In this document: in pieces, positions 2,164 to 41,030 of the stretch
How the letters are laid out: each line of letters starts with the position of its first letter
How positions within the stretch are numbered: the stretch's first letter is position 1
Assembly (NCBI GenBank): GCA_035528235.1
Contig: DATKZB010000305.1
Location: forward strand, 1-54,610
Direction: 5' to 3'
DNA length: 54,610 bases
From: Phycisphaerae bacterium
GTDB lineage: Bacteria; Planctomycetota; Phycisphaerae; FEN-1346
The notes under the pieces: generated by a model
What the model saw: only the letters and a program-made list of their open reading frames with translations
The model's database searches: none
What the model was told of the DNA's origin: nothing
Program-made: the position numbers and the translations under genes

Positions 2164-2296
2164 CGCGCGGGGCAAGCCCCGCGGCTAACCTCGCGCGCCT
2201 GGCGCCGAACGCGCCGAGCCGTGTTAGCCGCCCGGCTTGCCGGGCGCGTGTTGTCGGCGCCAGGCGCCGAACGCGCCAAGCGCGTGTTGTCGGCGC
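2164..2296. repeat. REP-like family A doublet (GTTAGCCG + hairpin + CGCG) plus local short duplications
   Basis: cgcgcggggcaagccccgcggctaac (2164..2189) faces gttagccgcccggcttgccgggcgcg (2223..2248) in inverted orientation. gcgtgttgtcggcgcc and ggcgccgaacgcgcc each occur twice in 2201..2296. The same units recur at 8136..8277 and 39053..39204. Confidence 0.8.
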
Positions 2297-8135: not shown

Positions 8136-8277
8136 CGCGCCCGGCAAGCCGGGCGGCTAACACGGCCCGACACGCCCGTTAGCCGCGGGGCTTGCCCCGC
8201 GCGTCGGCGCGCCACAACGCGCCCGGCAAGCCGGGCGGCTAACACAGGCCCGTTAGCCGCGGGGCTTGCCCCGCGCG
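8136..8277. repeat. REP-like family A, four units forming two inverted doublets (REPIN-like)
   Basis: Units at 8136..8161, 8178..8203, 8218..8243 and 8252..8277. They share a GTTAGCCG head and an 8-bp stem with CCGG or GGGG core variants carrying compensatory changes. The last unit supplies the TAA stop (8253..8255) and the last ~9 codons of ORF 8253..9599. Confidence 0.85.
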
Positions 8278-10236
8278 TCGGCCCGCGTAAAGAGGGCCGG
8301 GTCGCCGGGCATCGCCGTCTCGGCCGGCGTCACGGGCGTGAAGACGACCTTGTCGCCGGCCACCTTGATTTTGCCGACGATGTAGCGGCGCTCGTTGTCG
8401 CTGGTCCCCAGAAGCGAGACGCGGCCCAGCGAGGGCTGGGAGAAGAAGCCGACGCGGACGTCGAAATCGCCCTCCAGGCCGGGCGGCACCGTGACCGTGA
8501 ACGGCCCCTCGACGTACTCGCCCACCGGCCACTTCGACGTGCCGGGGTCGGGCAGGTGGTCGTTCTGGAACTGGATGGCCGCACCCGCCGGGTCGGTGAA
8601 GTGCACGAAGACGCGCCAGTCGGCCTCGACGGTCTTCTCGACCGCCCAGCGATAGGTAATCCGGAACGTGCGGCCGCCGGCGGTCTTGACCTCGGCCGCC
8701 TTGGGGGCCACGGCCACCGCCTCGGCCTTGCCCGACCACTGCTTCCAGTACAGGTGCGGCGGGATGCTATGGTAGTTGAGCGGCCGGCCGATGCCGACGT
8801 GGTCCAGCACGTACTCGGCCGCCTGGTTGATGTCGTACCCATACTTGCCATACATGGCGATACAATCGCGGTAGACCATCTCGAAGAGCGGCACGGGCGC
8901 CGCACCCAGCGCGTCCAGCAGTCCCTTATTGTGGTAGTAGGAGCCGCTGACGCCGGTGAGCCCCTCGAAGAAATCGGCGTGCGGCACGGCCCACTCGCGC
9001 CCGCACTCGCTGCCGAAACTGCCGAAAACCTCGCGGGCGTAGTCCGAAAGGGCCTGCTTGTACTTCATGTCGTCGGCGCGGGTAAGCGGGTGCTCCTTCG
9101 AGAAGCATTCCTGGAGGCCGGCGGCGTAGGTCGTGTCGATGAAGTAGGAGTCGGCGCCCGAGAGTTTCTCGACCGCCGCGAGGTTCTGCGGTCGCTTCGC
9201 CAGGTCGACCGCCCGCCGGGCACAGGTGATGTACGCGCGTCCGCCCGCCCACCGGCCGCCGACGGTGGGCTTGCCGTCCGGGTTCCTCTGGAGGCAACTC
9301 TCGTCCCACGAGGGCGAGTCGCGGTAGATGTCCTGGTAATTGTCGTGCAGCGACAGGATGTACCCGAGTTCTCGGACGCGTCGGCAGCAGCGGGCGAAGG
9401 CCTCGTCGCCGCCGCACTCCGGCGCCGTCGGCAGGACGTCGGGATGCTGGTTGTCGTAGCCGCGATGGATCCACCCGCCCATGATGAAGAGGACCCGCTC
9501 CAGCGCGAGGTCCCGCTTCAGGTGCTCGGCAATCTGGCGGGCCTCGTCGAACGTCCAGTTGACCCGGTGCGATTCCTCCTGGGTGCTCTCGTCGTTCATC
9601 TGGCGCGACAGGGTAGACTAGAGTTTGAAGTTGACCGCGCCGAAGTATTTGGCCCGGTCGGCGTGCCCTTTAAGTTTCTCGTCCCAGGTGACCAGCCAGC
9701 CGCGCTCGCGGGCCACCTCGCGGTACGCCGCGGCGATGAGATTGTAGTCGCCCTTGCCCAGAAATGCGACCCGCGCCGCCCGGGCCGACTTGCGGAGCAC
9801 CAGCGACAGCCCCAGCACCTGCCGGCCCAGGTAGTAACCCGTGCCATCGGCACGGCTCACCTCGGCCACGACGTACGGGTCGTCCCACGTTACCAGGGCG
9901 GCCGCGCCGGCCTTGACGATGCCCACCATCGCCATGTGGCAGCCCTCGTAGGCGTACGTGTCGAAGGCGTGGCGGACGGGGCGGGTACCCTTGGCCGGAA
10001 TCAACAGGCCCTCGCGGACCGGCACGACGACGTACCCCTGGTCCGCGCCGCTGGTGGTCCAGAGGGCCTCGTCAAGCAGGCGGATGTGTTCGACGGAAGC
10101 GGGGTCGGCGGCGTCCCAGGCGAAATCGAGGGCCTTGCCACCCGGGGCCGCCGCAACGGTCACGCGGACCCACGCGTCGGGCTTCTCGGGGACGGGACGG
10201 AAGGTCAGTTCGAGCGCGCTACCGTCTTTTTTTTTT
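8253..10236 (-). pseudogene. Interrupted TIM-barrel glycoside-hydrolase-like gene (tentatively DUF5696-like), read as two ORF pieces
   Basis: The pieces are 9618..10163 (frame open back to the A-run at 10227..10236) and 8253..9599. They are in the same frame, separated only by TAG (9618..9620) plus 6 codons. There is no SD before the Met at 9599. The upstream continuation lies in the -1-related frame of ORF 10205..11788. The GWIHRGYDNQHPDVLP...LHDNYQDIY motifs look like a sugar-hydrolase barrel (recalled, low certainty). Confidence 0.6.
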
Positions 10237-11788
10237 CGGCGTCACAGGGGCCCAAGACGAGGTCCTGGGCCTTGCCGTCGACCGTCATGCGGACGCGCCC
10301 GAATCCCCCCTTCCGGCCGTCGGAGCACCACGTCACGCCTCCCGCCCGGTCGGCGATTCGGTACCCGCCCGTTTCCGTGCGGACGGTGAACTCCAGGTCG
10401 GCGGTCTGGAGCGAGGCGGGCCCGGCCGCGCCGGCCGGGCCGGCTTCGCCCTTGGCGCCGGCGGCCTTCTTCGCCTTCAGGGCCTCGCGGAGCGACCGGC
10501 TCATGTAGGGCGGCTGGTGGCGGGTCATCTCGGCCAGGAGTTTAAAGAACCCGTACTTGCGGAGGCTCGAGATGCCCCAGTCGACCGGCACGCTCTGGTA
10601 CCCCTCGCTGAAGCCCTCTTCCTTCTTCCGGAAGTCGAAGAACCCCCAACCGGCGTACTCGCTGACAGCGGCAATCATGTTGTTGTCGGGCTGGTCGAAG
10701 TCGTAGTGATCGTCTTCGTTGAAGAGGATGGGCTTCTCATTGCCGCCCATCCGCTTGCGGGTGGCCTGGACCATGCGTCGGATGCCGGCGGGCTCGCCGA
10801 CACCGTTGCCGTGCAGCAGGACGAAGTCGCCGGCCCGGACGATGTCGTTCGGCGGCAGGGCCCCGCCGCCCATGCTCACGCTCACCAGCAGCCGCCCGGC
10901 CGGGCTCTTGACCTTGCCCTCGCTGCGTTTCTGGACGAGTTCGATGAGTTCCTTGACGCGTTGCTGGGTGAGGATGGCGTGGTCGTACTGGCGGACGTTG
11001 CACTCGTTGCAAATCTCCACCAGGACGTTCGTGTACTTTTTCTCGATGAGCCAGTCGGTGGCGTCCTCGGTGGCCCGGATGACCGACCGTTCATCCCAGA
11101 TGCGCTCATCCTGACCGAAGTAGAAGTACCCCAGGATGACCACCATGCCGAGTTCGTCGGCCTTGTCGATGATGCTCTCCAGCCGCGCCAGGTAATCGGC
11201 CCGCAGGCGGCCGTCGGCCTCGAACGCCGAATGGTGCCACGGCTGGACCGCGCTGTACCCCTCGGGGCTCCCGCCCTGGAGGTTGATCGTAAAGGCCAGC
11301 AGGCCGTGCGCCCGCCACGTGGGCATGGCCCGGATAAACTCGTGCGTGTTGCGCTCGGCGTCCCACGGCCCGTCGGGGTACTTCCAGCGCGAGCGCGTCT
11401 CGGGGTTGCGGTCGTCGAAGACGCCCTGCACCAGGCGGGCGTTCATCAGCAGGCCTTCGATCTTGTACTGCTTGTCTTTCGGCGCGCTGCGGGGCCAGCC
11501 GCGGCCCGGATACGTCGGCCTCTCGTTAATCTGGAAGGCGTTCTTGGCGATGCTGACCGTCGTCTTCCGCTGCATTTCCGGGTCCTCCAGCAGCGTCTGG
11601 TCCACCGTCACGGGGGCCTCTTCGGCCGGGGGCTTCCCGCCCGGCTTAGCAGGCGGCGCGGTCGCGGCAGGCTGAGGCGGCCTGGGAGGAAGCGGCCCCG
11701 GCGGCCTGCCCGCCCAGCACGGTTCCCCGGCCAGCAGACCGCACGCCAGGACTATCCCAGCCGCAAGCCATACCCGTGAGCAACACAT
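10205..11788 (-). CDS. Secreted GH5-like (cellulase-family TIM barrel) glycoside hydrolase whose ORF runs on into the N-terminus of the downstream module
   Basis: Start at ATG 11788 (MCCSRVWLAAGIVLACGLLAG, a signal peptide). VLVEICNECN resembles the GH5 NE acid/base motif. There is no stop before the linker KAKKAAGAKGEAGPAGAAG and a beta-rich segment that ends just after the A10 run. Confidence 0.65.
   Translation of the reverse strand: MCCSRVWLAAGIVLACGLLAGEPCWAGRPPGPLPPRPPQPAATAPPAKPGGKPPAEEAPVTVDQTLLEDPEMQRKTTVSIAKNAFQINERPTYPGRGWPRSAPKDKQYKIEGLLMNARLVQGVFDDRNPETRSRWKYPDGPWDAERNTHEFIRAMPTWRAHGLLAFTINLQGGSPEGYSAVQPWHHSAFEADGRLRADYLARLESIIDKADELGMVVILGYFYFGQDERIWDERSVIRATEDATDWLIEKKYTNVLVEICNECNVRQYDHAILTQQRVKELIELVQKRSEGKVKSPAGRLLVSVSMGGGALPPNDIVRAGDFVLLHGNGVGEPAGIRRMVQATRKRMGGNEKPILFNEDDHYDFDQPDNNMIAAVSEYAGWGFFDFRKKEEGFSEGYQSVPVDWGISSLRKYGFFKLLAEMTRHQPPYMSRSLREALKAKKAAGAKGEAGPAGAAGPASLQTADLEFTVRTETGGYRIADRAGGVTWCSDGRKGGFGRVRMTVDGKAQDLVLGPCDAEKKKTVARSN
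10227..10236 (-). other. A10 homopolymer (coding strand) creating an A_AAA_AAG heptamer in the zero frame
   Basis: The coding strand reads GAC GCC GAA AAA AAA AAG ACG GTA GCG CGC TCG AAC TGA. A -1 shift reads ...AAA AAA GAC GGT AGC GCG CTC GAA... and joins the frame of ORF 9618..10163. Confidence 0.9.
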
Positions 11789-12091
11789 AGCCGTTCGCCT
11801 TTCCCCATGACCCGCCACGCGCGTTCGGAAACCGGGCCTACACCACCGCCGCCGCCGCGAGCCATCGGTCCCCGCCCGCGGCCAACCAGGAAGTACATCG
11901 GACCCTCGTTGACTGAAACCCGGTCGGCCCCCCCCCCGGTTTCCCAAAATCCGGTCTTGACAGTCCCCTCGGCGGGTGGTAGCCAGATGCCCATTGCACG
12001 CCCGGCCCGTGCTTCGCCGCCGCCTGTCGGCGGGGAACCCGTGGCGGCGTGCCGCCTGGGAGGCGTCGTGGCCCGATATCGCAGCCCGCTG

Positions 12092-12790
12092 ATGGTGCCG
12101 TCCGCAGCGCGGCAGGGCCTGGCTGCCTTGGCGGCCGTGGCGGCCCTGGCGGCGTGCGGATGCGGGGGGCCGCCGTCCGATTCCGCCCTGTCCGATTCTG
12201 CCGCGCCACCGGCGCCGGCCCCCGACGCCCCCGCCCGGCCCGCCGTTCTGCTGATTCAGGGATGGTACCGGACCCAGGACGGCCGGCCCATCGGCCGCGG
12301 GGCGGTTCTGGCCAGCCATCGGGAGGGCGAGCGCGGCTACGAATTGTACGGCCGGAGCAGCGGCACCCTTGCCCTGTGGCTGGGCGACGGCCGACAGCCG
12401 CGCGAGGTCGTATCGCCCCAGGTCTACACCGAGAGCGGCCAGTGGGTCTACTTTGCCGTCTCTTTCGCGGGGACCGACGAGGCCGACGACGCCGCCCCGA
12501 CCAAGCCCGGCCGCATCGCCTTCTACAAGGGCACCGACAGGACGCCGGTCCGCCTGGCGCACCAAGCCGCCGTCGAGTGGGCCGTGCCGCGCGACCTGCC
12601 CGGAGAAGTCTCCATCGGCGCCCGGGCCGACGGGTCCAGGGCCTTCGCCGGGAACCTGAAGGGCCTGCGCGTCATGGCCGGGACGCTGGGTCCCGACCTG
12701 GCGTCCATCGAGAAACGCCGCCGCGACGACCTGGCCGACGACCGGCTCGGGCCGCCCGACCGGTCTCCCGGGACCCGTTCCCCCGATTAA
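12092..12790 (+). CDS. LamG/concanavalin-like domain lipoprotein
   Basis: Start chosen at ATG 12092 (MVPSAARQGLAALAAVAALAACG lipobox). The SGQWVYFAVSF...AFAGNLKGLRVMAG pattern is typical of Laminin_G_3 proteins (recalled). Confidence 0.65.
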   Translation: MVPSAARQGLAALAAVAALAACGCGGPPSDSALSDSAAPPAPAPDAPARPAVLLIQGWYRTQDGRPIGRGAVLASHREGERGYELYGRSSGTLALWLGDGRQPREVVSPQVYTESGQWVYFAVSFAGTDEADDAAPTKPGRIAFYKGTDRTPVRLAHQAAVEWAVPRDLPGEVSIGARADGSRAFAGNLKGLRVMAGTLGPDLASIEKRRRDDLADDRLGPPDRSPGTRSPD

Positions 12791-12915
12791 CCCTACAGCG
12801 CCACTTGTCGCGCGGCGGCCTTCCCAGGCCGCCGCGATCGGGCCTGACGCATGTTCCTGGCGGCCTAGGAAGGCCGCCAGGCGGGAGGAAGTGGCGAATT
12901 GGCGATGTAGGATTG
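12791..12915. repeat. REPIN-like family C element (two hairpins, GTAG-type ends)
   Basis: Hairpins gcgcggcggccttcccaggccgccgcg (12810..12836) and cctggcggcctaggaaggccgccagg (12856..12881). The ends are ccctacag and atgtagga. A near-identical inverted copy lies at 15861..15966, with relatives at 19221..19270, 38480..38554 and 28632..28661. Confidence 0.85.
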
Positions 12916-12967
12916 ACATGGTTGAACCGCAACCTACACAGGAAACCTTGAAAGGGAGTCGTCACAC

Positions 12968-16970: not shown

Positions 16971-17010
16971 CGCCCGGGCATCGTTTAGAGCGTCTTGAGA
17001 TTGAGTCTTT

Positions 17011-17088
17011 GCGCGGTGGGTCCCCGTACCCACCGCGCCAGGGCACACGTCTTGCGGCGAGCGCGGCGGGTGCGGGGACCCGCCCCGC
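17011..17088. repeat. REPIN-like family B doublet
   Basis: gcgcggtgggtccccgtacccaccgcgc (17011..17038) and gcgcggcgggtgcggggacccgccccgc (17061..17088). A family-A-like unit, gtagccgcgggcggtacgcccgcgcc, follows near 17113. Confidence 0.8.
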
Positions 17089-17155
17089 AAACACGCAAAG
17101 TTAAACCGCTGTAGCCGCGGGCGGTACGCCCGCGCCTTCGGCGCGCGCACCGACG

Positions 17156-39052: not shown

Positions 39053-39204
39053 ACGCGCCGCGCAAGCGCGGCGGCTAACCTTGCCCGGCTTGGCGCTGCG
39101 CAAGCGCGGCGGCTAACTCGGGCCGACACGGCGCCGCGCGAGCGCGGCGGCTAACCTTGCCCGGCTTGGCGCTGCGCCAGCGCGGCGGCTAACTCGGGCC
39201 GGGC
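39053..39204. repeat. Tandem duplication (2 x 76 bp) containing four family A REP units
   Basis: The period of 76 was measured between ctaaccttgcc at 39075 and at 39151. The units are cgc(a/c/g)agcgcggcggctaac with a CGCG-core stem variant. Confidence 0.85.
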
Positions 39205-39231
39205 ACCGCGCTGTCGCAAGCGATACTTCAT

Positions 39232-39257
39232 GTAGGGTGGGGCGCGCCCCACCTTAC
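39232..39257. repeat. GTAG-headed palindrome gtagggtggggcgcgccccaccttac
   Basis: Near-perfect 26-nt palindrome. It overlaps the TAA stop (39254..39256) of the sulfatase gene. A related half-site lies at 53354..53372. Confidence 0.8.
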
Positions 39258-40978
39258 GTGCCCAGCCGCTTGACCTCGACGTAATGCACGCCGACAGTCT
39301 GGTCGCCCGCGGCCAGCCAGGCTTCGAGGCGTCCGTCGCCGGCGACGAGTTTCACGTCCCGCAGCGTGCATGTGGCCGCGCCCTTGGCGACCGCCGTCGC
39401 GAGATCGGTCCCGAGGAGTTTGAACACCGCCTGGCGATCCTCCGGGGCGGGCGCGAACCGCAGCGTCACGTCGAACGTGCCGGCCTCGGCCACGCGGACC
39501 TCCCAGTGGCCGAGCGAATTCTTGCCCCATCCGGCCCGCGGCCCGCGCCAATCCTGCCGCGACAGACGCACCGGGTTCTCGTGCGGCGTGCCCAGGTAAA
39601 TGCGCGGCGGGGCGTAACCGCGCGTCGACGAGACGTCCTTGAACCACGCCTCGTACCCCTCGCGCATCCGCTGGACGACGTCGGGGTGGTCGGCCGCCAG
39701 GTCCTTCGTTTCGCCGGGGTCGGCCGCCATGTCGTAGAGTTCGAAGGCGGGCGTCCGGCCCTTGAGGTGCATGACGAGTTTCCAACGCTCGGCGCGGGCG
39801 GCGGCGTCGCGGTACAGGACGGGCTCGTCGCCGCGGTGCCACTGGAAGGTGAGCGTGCGGTCGGGCCAGTCGCCGGCCCGGCCGTCGAGCAGCGGCAAGA
39901 GGTCGAGGCCGTCAAGTTTCAGGCCCGGCGGCGGTGCCACGCCGCAGGCGTCGAGCAGCGTCGGCACGAGGTCGATGTGCGCGGCAATGCGCGACATCTG
40001 CCGCGGCGGCAGCCGCCCCGGCCACCGGATGAAGAACGGCACGCGGATGCCCCCGTCGTACACGGTACCCTTGCCGGCGCGAAGGCCCGCCGCGTACCGG
40101 TTCCGCTGCTGGGCACCGTTGTCGGTCAGGAAGATAACGATGGTCCGGCGCTCCAGGCCGAGGGCCTTGAGTTTCTCGAGGAGCCGGCCGACGTTCTCGT
40201 CGACGTTCGCAATCATGCCGTACACCTTGGCCGTGTCGTCGGGCAGGCCCATGGCACGATACGGCTCGACATATTTCTCCGGCACCTGAAGCGGCCCGTG
40301 CGGGGCGTTCGTCGGAAGGTAACAGAAGAACGGCCGGTCGCGGTTGGCCTCGATGAAGGCCATCGCCGCGTCGGCGAAGAGGTCGGTGCAGTAGCCCTTG
40401 GCCGGCTCGTCCTTGCCGTTTCGCTGGAGGATGGGGTCGAAGTAACCGGGGCTGCCGGGCGGGTCGGAGGGCTGGCACATGCCGCCGCCCAGGTGGTACA
40501 AGGCCTCGTGGAACCCCTGGTCGATGGGCCGCATCGGATAGTTGTCGCCCAGGTGCCACTTGCCGAAGAGGCCGCACCGGTACCCCGCGGCGCCCAGCAT
40601 CTCGGCCAGCGTGACCTCGTCGGGGTGCATCATCGCGCGGCCGATGAAGGTGTCGATGGCGCCCGTGCGGTAGTTGTAGCGGCCGGTCATGAGGCACGCC
40701 CGCGTCGGCGCGCAAACGGGCGAGACGTGGAAATGCGTCAACTCGACGCTCTCGGCGGCCAGGCGGTCGAGGTTCGGCGTGCGGATCGTGTCGTTGCCGT
40801 GGCACCCCAGGTCGCCGTAGCCCTGGTCGTCGGTCATGATGAGCACGACGTTCGGCCGCCCGGCCGGCGTCGCCTCCTCCCTGCCCCGCGCGCACGACGC
40901 CAACGAGGCGGCGGCCGCGCCCGAGGCCACCATGCCCAGGAACTCGCGCCGCTTCAGACCGTTCTCGCGTTTCGGCAT
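39254..40978 (-). CDS. Arylsulfatase (formylglycine-dependent, Tat-exported)
   Basis: ATG 40978 follows a GGGGGG SD (GTG 40987 is an alternative). It has an RREFLGMVASGAAAA Tat signal, LIMTDDQGYGDLG, CAPTR (CxPxR), GKWHLG and a C-terminal beta domain. Confidence 0.9.
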   Translation of the reverse strand: MPKRENGLKRREFLGMVASGAAAASLASCARGREEATPAGRPNVVLIMTDDQGYGDLGCHGNDTIRTPNLDRLAAESVELTHFHVSPVCAPTRACLMTGRYNYRTGAIDTFIGRAMMHPDEVTLAEMLGAAGYRCGLFGKWHLGDNYPMRPIDQGFHEALYHLGGGMCQPSDPPGSPGYFDPILQRNGKDEPAKGYCTDLFADAAMAFIEANRDRPFFCYLPTNAPHGPLQVPEKYVEPYRAMGLPDDTAKVYGMIANVDENVGRLLEKLKALGLERRTIVIFLTDNGAQQRNRYAAGLRAGKGTVYDGGIRVPFFIRWPGRLPPRQMSRIAAHIDLVPTLLDACGVAPPPGLKLDGLDLLPLLDGRAGDWPDRTLTFQWHRGDEPVLYRDAAARAERWKLVMHLKGRTPAFELYDMAADPGETKDLAADHPDVVQRMREGYEAWFKDVSSTRGYAPPRIYLGTPHENPVRLSRQDWRGPRAGWGKNSLGHWEVRVAEAGTFDVTLRFAPAPEDRQAVFKLLGTDLATAVAKGAATCTLRDVKLVAGDGRLEAWLAAGDQTVGVHYVEVKRLGT

Positions 40979-41030
40979 GACGTGCACCCCCTATGCGCCT
41001 GATCGCCTGCGACGCTCCCGCCGGCGGCCG

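Follow-up and report, generated by a model that had tools for sequence, protein, structure and literature searches.

Do the short hairpin repeats scattered along a 54,610-nucleotide contig of a Phycisphaerae bacterium (contig C305 of assembly G000, hereafter the window) form a family of repetitive extragenic palindromic (REP) elements, and if so, what kind of enzyme has spread them? A first-pass annotation had likened them to REPINs (REP doublets forming hairpins), which are mobilised by REP-associated tyrosine transposases (RAYTs) and carry a GTAG-like head. We find that these repeats, here termed family A, are a genuine genome-wide REP family in Phycisphaerae, and that they are tied to a divergent RAYT-like lineage specific to Planctomycetota; belonging to such a lineage, they are not a new kind of element. 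It is highly probable that they are REPs with a TTAGC foot, spread by a RAYT-like enzyme of what we call clade II and probably orphaned in this genome, unless a paralogue encoded on contig C193 cross-mobilises them. The source assembly is a 3.9-Mb metagenome-assembled genome (MAG) of 403 contigs, all of at least 2 kb, with 68.9% G+C and 90.9% completeness, and it was compared with 21 genomes from the same taxonomic family and with 19 that lie outside this family but within its order or class.

Read on its own strand, a family A unit consists of GTTAGC, an 8-bp stem, a TT loop and the complementary 8-bp stem, giving a 24-nt core. The exact head GTTAGCCG occurs 10 times in the window, always within three sites that had been named beforehand: at 2182-2189(-) and 2223-2230(+) in the first, at 8154-8161(-), 8178-8185(+), 8236-8243(-) and 8252-8259(+) in the second, and at 39072-39079(-), 39110-39117(-), 39148-39155(-) and 39186-39193(-) in the third. 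Three stem variants are present, CGCGGGGC (V1), CGCCCGGC (V2) and CGCCGCGC (V4), each with its exact complement across the TT loop, and the co-ordinated change of both arms thus reads as it had been described. Variant-specific tails often follow the stems, that of V2 being CGTGTTGTTG. The units are laid out as follows.

Site 1, 2166-2246: head-to-head V1/V2 doublet
2166..2189, minus strand: V1 unit, GTTAGC CGCGGGGC TT GCCCCGCG, left arm of the doublet
2223..2246, plus strand: V2 unit, GTTAGC CGCCCGGC TT GCCGGGCG, with tail CGTGTTGTCG, right arm of the same doublet
Site 2, 8138-8275: V2/V1/V2/V1 in alternating orientation
8138..8161, minus strand: V2 unit, first of four
8178..8201, plus strand: V1 unit, second of four
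8220..8243, minus strand: V2 unit, third of four
8252..8275, plus strand: V1 unit, fourth of the site, its head reading GCTAAC on the minus strand
Site 3, 39056-39193, minus strand: direct tandem array of four V4-type units, a 76-bp duplication of a two-unit block
39056..39079, minus strand: V4 unit, CGCCGCGC TT GCGCGGCG, first of the direct array, which has a 38-bp period
39094..39117, minus strand: V4 unit with one stem mismatch, second of the site
39132..39155, minus strand: V4 stem with a TC loop, third of the site and outside the strict TT census
39170..39193, minus strand: V4-like stem with a TG loop and one mismatch, fourth of the site

The first-pass count of at least ten units at three sites is matched by the ten heads, but the variant it had added near 17113 (TGTAGCCGCGGGCGGTACGCCCGCG) was rejected as a member, its GTAG head and GTA loop marking a different REP family. 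Counting heads alone overstates family A: with up to one mismatch the 8-mer GTTAGCCG has 49 matches where 44.7 are expected, which is no enrichment, and it is the complete unit that far exceeds chance.

Searching the whole genome with a strict pattern, in which the TT loop is required, returned 124-125 matches (124 with the regular expression suggested in the first-pass annotation), and a relaxed census allowing one stem mismatch returned 145 units in 87 clusters on 60+ contigs, or about 145 in 3.9 Mb, so that the motif is far from being confined to the window. Singlets account for 51 of the clusters, pairs for 21 and larger groups for 15. When pairing was not presupposed, 128 of 166 GTTAGC-N8-TT-N8 sites paired at all 8 positions and a further 17 at 7; with the head reversed, none of 26 sites exceeded 5/8, and among all N8-TT-N8 sites 104 of 103,826 paired 8/8. 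The genome holds 17 stem variants, the commonest being V1 CGCGGGGC (56 copies), V2 CGCCCGGC (45), V3 CGCCCGCC (14) and V4 CGCCGCGC (8), and V1 and V2 are very homogeneous, with 51/56 and 42/45 copies identical. Covariation was measured on 74 distinct units from this genome and its relatives, in an alignment that kept non-pairing noise rows and in which neither the foot (columns 1-6) nor the TT loop can vary, since the search pattern fixes both. Paired cells make up 87.5% compared to 62.9% in shuffles, double-sided changes fill 119 cells compared to 40, and covariation scores 0.551, where shuffles give 0.162 and slid controls 0.10-0.17; none of 500 shuffles reached the observed values. The stems therefore pair and covary well beyond the controls, and the structure of the hairpin is under selection, as had been proposed, while the sequence of the stem is not. 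The base preceding the foot is not conserved.

The arrangement of the units is also far from random with respect to variant. Direct neighbours carry the same variant in 36 of 40 pairs, whereas inverted neighbours are heterotypic in 17 of 18, with V1/V2 in 15 (Fisher p = 5e-10). Arrays reach 6-7 units with periods of 38-69 bp, and their spacers of 8-47 nt are themselves repeated. The inverted doublets and tandem arrays described for the window are there, head-to-head at sites 1 and 2 and direct at site 3, but the fit to a REPIN organisation is partial: the doublets join V1 to V2, and most of the population consists of singlets (51 of the 87 clusters) and direct pairs. Being heterotypic, the doublets are closer to bacterial interspersed mosaic elements (BIMEs), in which two REP subtypes alternate in orientation, as V1 and V2 do here, than to perfect REPINs, and the organisation of family A is best called BIME/REPIN-like. 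Folded as single-stranded DNA (ssDNA), the site 1 doublet becomes one extended hairpin (-37 kcal/mol, z -3.6) broken by two 2x2 internal loops; the window doublets reach -30.2 and -37 kcal/mol (z about -3.6), the internal loops falling where V1 and V2 differ, and a single unit folded as DNA gives -9.2 kcal/mol. A V1/V2-type hetero-doublet occurs in another genus as well, where V2 carries a compensated change (CGCCCAGC/GCTGGGCG).

The motif is restricted to one taxonomic family. Within it, 18 of the 21 genomes compared carry 1-195 strict copies, genus g12 having 44-195, and none was found in the 19 genomes from other families of the same order or class; the reversed pattern gave 0-1 copies across genomes. 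Other genera have other dominant stems, such as CCGGGC, CCGGCC, CCGGAC, CCCTGC, CCCATC and more, each with its complement. Comparison of orthologous sites, made between genera, shows differing occupancy at two of the window sites. At site 2, homologues of the open reading frame (ORF) 8253-9599 in four other genera are about 150 residues longer and have no TTAGC unit after them; homology ends at "...GDPALFTRA", exactly where the cluster starts, and the missing C-terminus was found nowhere in the window. At site 3, the orthologue of gene 39254-40987 in G005 is followed by a 53-bp gap with no family A unit and by the same neighbouring gene, compared to 226 bp and four units here, and G008, G013 and G003 have other repeats at this position. 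Since both sites are filled here and lack the units in other genera, occupancy by family A is lineage-specific.

Which enzyme is associated with these units emerges from the relatives, which were searched with the Y1-type protein encoded on C193; the resulting tree has three well-supported clades. Clade II is monophyletic (100/97 support) and includes the genes of G011, G018, G020 and G021, all of which have family A units on both sides, exact V1 (CGCGGGGC) included. Every clade-II member examined is flanked by NTTAGC-CG-N6-TT-N6-CG units, with lineage-specific feet at the genes of G001, G004, G006, G010 and G013: TTTAGC, CTTAGC and ATTAGC, and in G006 TTTCGC, on units with stems identical to V2 and V4. 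Clade I, to which the C193 protein belongs, is flanked in sister genomes by TTAGCCGCGA-NCC-GAA-GGN-GAGCGCG elements, in which NCC and GGN are compensated, and by no TT-loop units, and the clade of the C333 and L028 proteins by GTTTAGC hairpins with 3-nt loops. The clade-II locus is syntenic in four g12 species, with both flanks 78-96% identical, and both flanks are homologous also within the pairs G004/G013 and G001/G010; each genome has 1-3 homologues, which are diverged paralogues with no identical copies. A syntenic and vertically inherited locus argues for RAYT-like rather than insertion-sequence-like behaviour, and a gene at a fixed locus with its own units on both sides is a REPtron. An IS200/IS605 identity was rejected on the same grounds, there being no near-identical copies, a syntenic location and no tnpB beside the gene (this genome's locus).

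The proteins themselves fit such a role. H104, H106, Y166, N170 and P171 are invariant in 20 sequences (motifs HVH and YVExNP, with Y+4 = N), and an N-terminal YGFWLPNDPRGSWS block is common to these 20 family members; L059, which has an in-frame stop, was left out of the alignment. A sequence search of the PDB gave weak matches to ISDra2 TnpA and to E. coli TnpA-REP (PDB ID: 4ER8). For an AlphaFold (AF2) model (pLDDT 84.6, pTM 0.82) the top 30 Foldseek matches are all Y1 HUH proteins (ISDra2, TnpA-REP 4ER8, and IS608 or IS200 transposases; probability 1.00), with ISDra2 and 4ER8 the best structural matches. The clade-II protein is thus predicted to represent a divergent RAYT-like Y1 HUH lineage.

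Taken this way, the anatomy of a unit, with a single-stranded 5' foot (G)TTAGC abutting a G+C-rich 8-bp stem, a TT loop and often a variant-specific tail, would be that of a substrate which a clade-II Y1 HUH nuclease/transposase copies into extragenic DNA. If it works as E. coli TnpA-REP and IS608 TnpA do, this enzyme would read ssDNA, recognising the hairpin by shape and the foot by sequence, which would explain why the stems are free to covary and the foot and loop are fixed. Local tandem duplication would multiply units into homotypic direct arrays, and the inverted V1/V2 hetero-doublets could fold into long hairpins resembling REPINs and BIMEs. The cleavage and joining chemistry we infer, as we do the enzyme acting in this genome, where the clade-I paralogue on C193 might cross-mobilise family A; elements next to it share the TTAGCCGCG foot.

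Several points weigh against this explanation. Described REP super-families are tagged by GT[AG]G or CGTC (PMC3733652, PMC6006769), whereas family A has a TTAG(C) foot. The best profile matches of the clade-II protein both stay under their curated cut-offs, with 46.7 bits (E 2.8e-12) for NCBIfam NF047646 REP_Tyr_transpos, where 80 are required, and 21.8 bits for Pfam Y1_Tnp PF01797, where the cut-off is 23. Copy number and presence of the gene correlate imperfectly: G015 has 97 units and no homologue, and G001, whose units have a TTTAGC foot, gives 0 strict matches despite possessing a clade-II gene. Occupancy was compared between genera, and recent mobility is thus putative. Every compared genome is an incomplete MAG. 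Finally, paralogues aside, no clade-II sequence was found in the present assembly even at E = 10, and the link between enzyme and repeats in this genome consequently rests on the sister genera. The RAYT connection suggested at first pass thus holds through linkage to clade II in those genera, but neither with the GTAG-like head that was part of it nor with a cognate gene in this assembly.

Where the gene might have been can be traced. The genes flanking the clade-II gene in G018 are adjacent here on contig C336, where C336:310-1494 (gene C336:49-1509) corresponds to the left flank at 70% amino acid (aa) identity and C336:2048-2752 (gene from 2039) to the right flank at 89%. The 529 bp between them (C336:1510-2038, locus L083) carry seven family A units, separated by unique spacers, but no ORF belonging to the clade-II protein family. 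As the gene is missing and the syntenic locus holds units only, C336 is probably a REPtron that lost its transposase, and family A in this genome an orphaned population, though an assembly artefact at C336 is possible. The gene could instead be present in the organism and have been dropped from the assembly or bin, for the MAG is 90.9% complete, is broken into 403 contigs with none under 2 kb, and has several other Y1 genes at contig ends, and the clade-II gene is bracketed by repeats. However, the C336 locus is assembled without a break, with both flanking genes matched to G018 and 529 bp between them, and its units are shorter than typical assembly k-mers, which would make collapse unlikely; we consider a dropped gene a rather doubtful account of the absence. 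Family A clusters are unusually crowded on contigs C336 and C343, which carry 5 and 7, respectively.

A second alternative to an orphaned population is that family A is still active here, moved either by the clade-I protein of C193 or by a different one of the 14 or more Y1 genes. At least 14 Y1/RAYT-like genes are present in this genome (10 Pfam Y1_Tnp matches plus at least 4 paralogues by tblastn), on contigs C390, C398, C346, C151, C92, C136, C85, C374, C333, C193, C101, C362, C80 and C105. Most are bracketed by a hairpin family of their own, and the canonical RAYTs among them, flanked by their own GTAG-footed REPs, serve as an internal control. Those hairpins include:

two C390 genes: GTAGCCACGGG...
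C151 gene: GTAGCGCGGGGG...
C85 gene: GTGGCGGGT-N-CGGGGACCCGCCAC
C92 gene: GCTAGCC...
C333 gene: GTTTAGCCG with a GTA/GCA loop

Family A brackets no Y1 gene of this genome. GTTAGCC lies within 1.5 kb of the 10 Pfam matches only at C85, and the C85 gene was rejected as partner; the adjacency is incidental, because that gene is bracketed by a different REP. The C193 gene encodes an intact protein of 197 aa (MVLGTHLILTAYGFWLPNDPRGS...) with HVH and YVEANP motifs, and directly 3' of its stop codon lies a head-to-head doublet with feet GTTAGCCGCG/CTTAGCCGCG, whose first 9-10 bases are those of V1; the homogeneity of V1 and V2 would also fit continued activity. On the other side, the doublet shares TTAGCCGCG feet with family A but differs in its body (CGAGCCGAAGGCGAGCGCG) and has just 8 copies in the genome, clade-I genes of sister genomes keep to their own elements with no TT-loop units, and known RAYTs are each paired with a REP family of their own (PMC6006769). 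Mobilisation by C193 or another resident gene therefore seems improbable to us, and a population left behind by a clade-II enzyme remains the reading we prefer.

The location of the units relative to genes bears on a third possibility, that the hairpins are signals selected by the host at the RNA or DNA level (3'-end stabilisers, terminators, or nucleoid-protein or gyrase sites) with no spread by a transposase. Genes were called with a crude GC3-based ORF picker covering 76% of the genome, which leaves 44 of the 87 clusters with no assignable gene context; by these calls coding-like ORFs contain none of the 87. Both neighbours were called for 43 clusters, of which 33 lie in co-directional, 6 in convergent and 4 in divergent gaps. 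Units in co-directional gaps mostly run with transcription (50, compared to 14 opposed), and many lie just after stop codons, as expected of host signals; E. coli REPs have such secondary roles (PMC6006769), and family A persists here with no cognate gene. Yet the stems are followed by no T-run, the units face either way and form arrays of as many as 6-7, divergent gaps also contain them, and an invariant single-stranded foot and clustering around one transposase clade in several genera would be unexpected for terminators. Host-signal roles would be exaptations, compatible with an origin as REPs, and we hold it very unlikely that they account for the family by themselves.

Six neighbouring ORFs take their stop codon from a unit, namely the TAA that its head reads on the reverse strand, and those ORFs end in residues encoded by the hairpin. 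For instance, the TAA at 8253-8255, within the minus-strand GCTAAC of the unit at 8252..8275, is the stop codon of ORF 8253-9599(-), whose final 7 residues (ARGKPRG) are encoded by this V1 unit. The TAG of the head was also considered as an in-frame stop of the upstream gene, and was rejected as a general property of family A (0/145 units). ORF 8253-9599 is itself part of a split gene: together with ORFs 9618-10163 and 10205-12919 (8253-12919(-)), it corresponds to one ORF of 1336-1457 aa in four relatives, the three-way split coming in addition to the loss of about 150 C-terminal residues that breaks exactly at the REP cluster. Either this is a pseudogene in decay where a REP-associated rearrangement or deletion took place, or the splits are partly assembly frameshifts.

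That the units are ends or fragments of miniature inverted-repeat transposable elements (MITEs) or insertion sequences moved by a DDE transposase, or degenerate CRISPR arrays, is hardly credible: the arrays are regularly spaced (38-69 bp) and V1 units adjoin a 235-nt dispersed element, but single 24-36-nt units are bounded by neither terminal inverted repeats nor target-site duplications, about 38 of the 56 V1 units lie away from that element and the others at distances varying from 4 to 30 nt, Rfam has no match, and a CRISPR array was rejected as the spacers are repeated and of only 8-47 nt and most units are single. Searched against Rfam at the gathering threshold, the window gave three tRNAs and nothing else.

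The 235-nt element is a non-coding dispersed repeat with 39 near-full-length copies in this genome at 74-93% identity, for instance at C282:4105-4339, C130:4550-4790 and C126:9381-9617, outside the window. It extends from ATACACTTTGAGAAAACGCCC... to ...CAATATATACTAAAGCA, its terminal inverted repeats being imperfect and its core (TTTTTGATCGnTTTTTTCGATTTTTGATCGG) AT-rich; 18 of the 39 copies are preceded at 4-30 nt by a V1 unit, and 6 are followed by a V3 unit. Its core (positions 91-158) has at least 19 matches in each of G005, G011, G018 and G021. Three copies had no Rfam match at E up to 1, and the copies have no consistent orientation to genes. The element is either MITE-like or an undescribed RNA-gene family.

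Among known systems, the REP/BIME elements of E. coli with TnpA-REP (RAYT, YafM; PDB ID: 4ER8) are among those closest to family A. Both are short extragenic GC-rich hairpins with a single-stranded 5' foot containing TAG, in hundreds of copies; the Y and Z subtypes alternate in inverted orientation as V1 and V2 do (17/18 inverted pairs heterotypic); and in each system the Y1 HUH gene is single-copy and syntenic and has REPs of its own on either side, the predicted clade-II fold matching 4ER8. Family A differs in its (G)TTAGC foot in place of GTAG, its fixed TT loop and planctomycete host, in the extra N-terminal YGFWLPNDPRGSWS segment of the clade-II protein and its scores below the curated RAYT and Y1_Tnp thresholds, and in the absence of the cognate gene from this genome. 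With the REPINs of Pseudomonas fluorescens (Bertels & Rainey 2011, PMC3116915) it shares inverted doublets predicted to form a single extended hairpin (-30 to -37 kcal/mol, z about -3.6) and vertical inheritance within one lineage; unlike them, it has 18 inverted pairs against 40 direct ones, 51 of 87 clusters single, and heterotypic doublets with two 2x2 internal loops.

REPs tagged with GTAG or CGTC have been described in more than 80 species, Planctomycetes and the PVC superphylum included (Di Nocera et al. 2013, PMC3733652). Like them, family A is a stem-loop tagged at one end by a short motif and is one of several families in its genome, but its tag, TTAGC, departs from both consensuses; neither GTTAG nor TTAGC occurs as a string in that paper, and a TTAGC foot is mentioned neither there nor in PMC6006769. 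The foot, GTTAGC here and NTTAGC in sister genera, contains TAG with an extra T and departs from the canonical GT[AG]G/CGTC form, and the GTAG-footed REPs of this genome make up families of their own. Quentin et al. 2018 (PMC6006769) describe REPtrons with one RAYT per REP family and Y/Z subtypes, and also a rare TnpA-Y1 class 3, found mostly in Planctomycetes, Acidobacteria and Proteobacteria, with a CnGA foot, a Y----Q motif, an extended conserved N-terminus and atypical flanking hairpins that can be high-copy. Distant matches of the clade-II protein fall in the same phyla, but, comparing by class description, clade II differs from class 3 in its TTAGC foot and its YVExNP motif (class-2-like, Y+4 = N). 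A literature search found no paper joining "repetitive extragenic palindromic" with Phycisphaerae.

As much speaks for as against a wider proposal, that the YGFWLPNDPRGSWS proteins are an undescribed, Planctomycetota-wide RAYT-like class with a TTAG(C) foot, in which foot, loop and stem co-diversify with the protein clade, populations reach 100-200 copies, and the present genome is a natural knock-out. Under it, clade II may go with NTTAGC and TT, the C333/L028 clade with GTTTAGC and GTA/GCA, and clade I with TTAGCCGCGA-NCC-GAA-GGN-GAGCGCG. TTAGCC-foot systems of YGFWLPNDPRGSW proteins can be high-copy. To our knowledge, REP/RAYT systems have been studied almost entirely in Gammaproteobacteria. 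The match of foot, loop and protein clade across genera provides a comparative data set for how these nucleases read hairpins, and the missing cognate gene is a natural experiment on REP persistence; were the enzyme truly deleted from its ancestral locus, leaving 145 still-homogeneous units, the genome would allow a direct test of REP decay or of takeover by a paralogue after RAYT loss. On a practical level, the repeats fragment MAG assemblies, give stop codons and short C-terminal tails to adjacent ORFs and mark at least one gene truncation, and those annotating Planctomycetota genomes should therefore mask them.

Family A is one of several high-copy REP families that stand side by side with the 14 or more Y1/RAYT-like genes in this one 3.9-Mb planctomycete genome. 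The family with GTTTAGC and a GCA/GTA loop has more than 110 copies, GTAGCGCGGGGG-TTTAT/C about 90 and GTAGCCACGGGC about 16, and there are further families of GTGGCGGGT-N-CGGGGACCCGCCAC and GGTCACCCTGCGGGATGACCATGCCACCCGG. Genes C92:52-519 and C374:972-1619, which lie between repeats of the GCTAGCC and CCGAGCCGCGAC types, encode diverged paralogues (LAYLITFTCYGTWLHGDERG...) that end with YVQNQ and YVVDEQ; going by description, these proteins fit class 3 of Quentin et al. 2018 better than clade II does, and may be members of it. Within the window, 17010-17135 holds units of two other REP families between genes, two of them of the GTGGCGGGT...ACCCGCCAC type that brackets the C85 RAYT and one a GTAG-footed GTAGCCGCGGGCGGTACGCCCGCG. 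A 32-nt palindrome, CATGTAGGGTGGGGCG/CGCCCCACCTTACGTG, lies at 39229-39260, directly at the stop of gene 39254-40987(-), and looks like a single GTAG-footed REP of yet another type.

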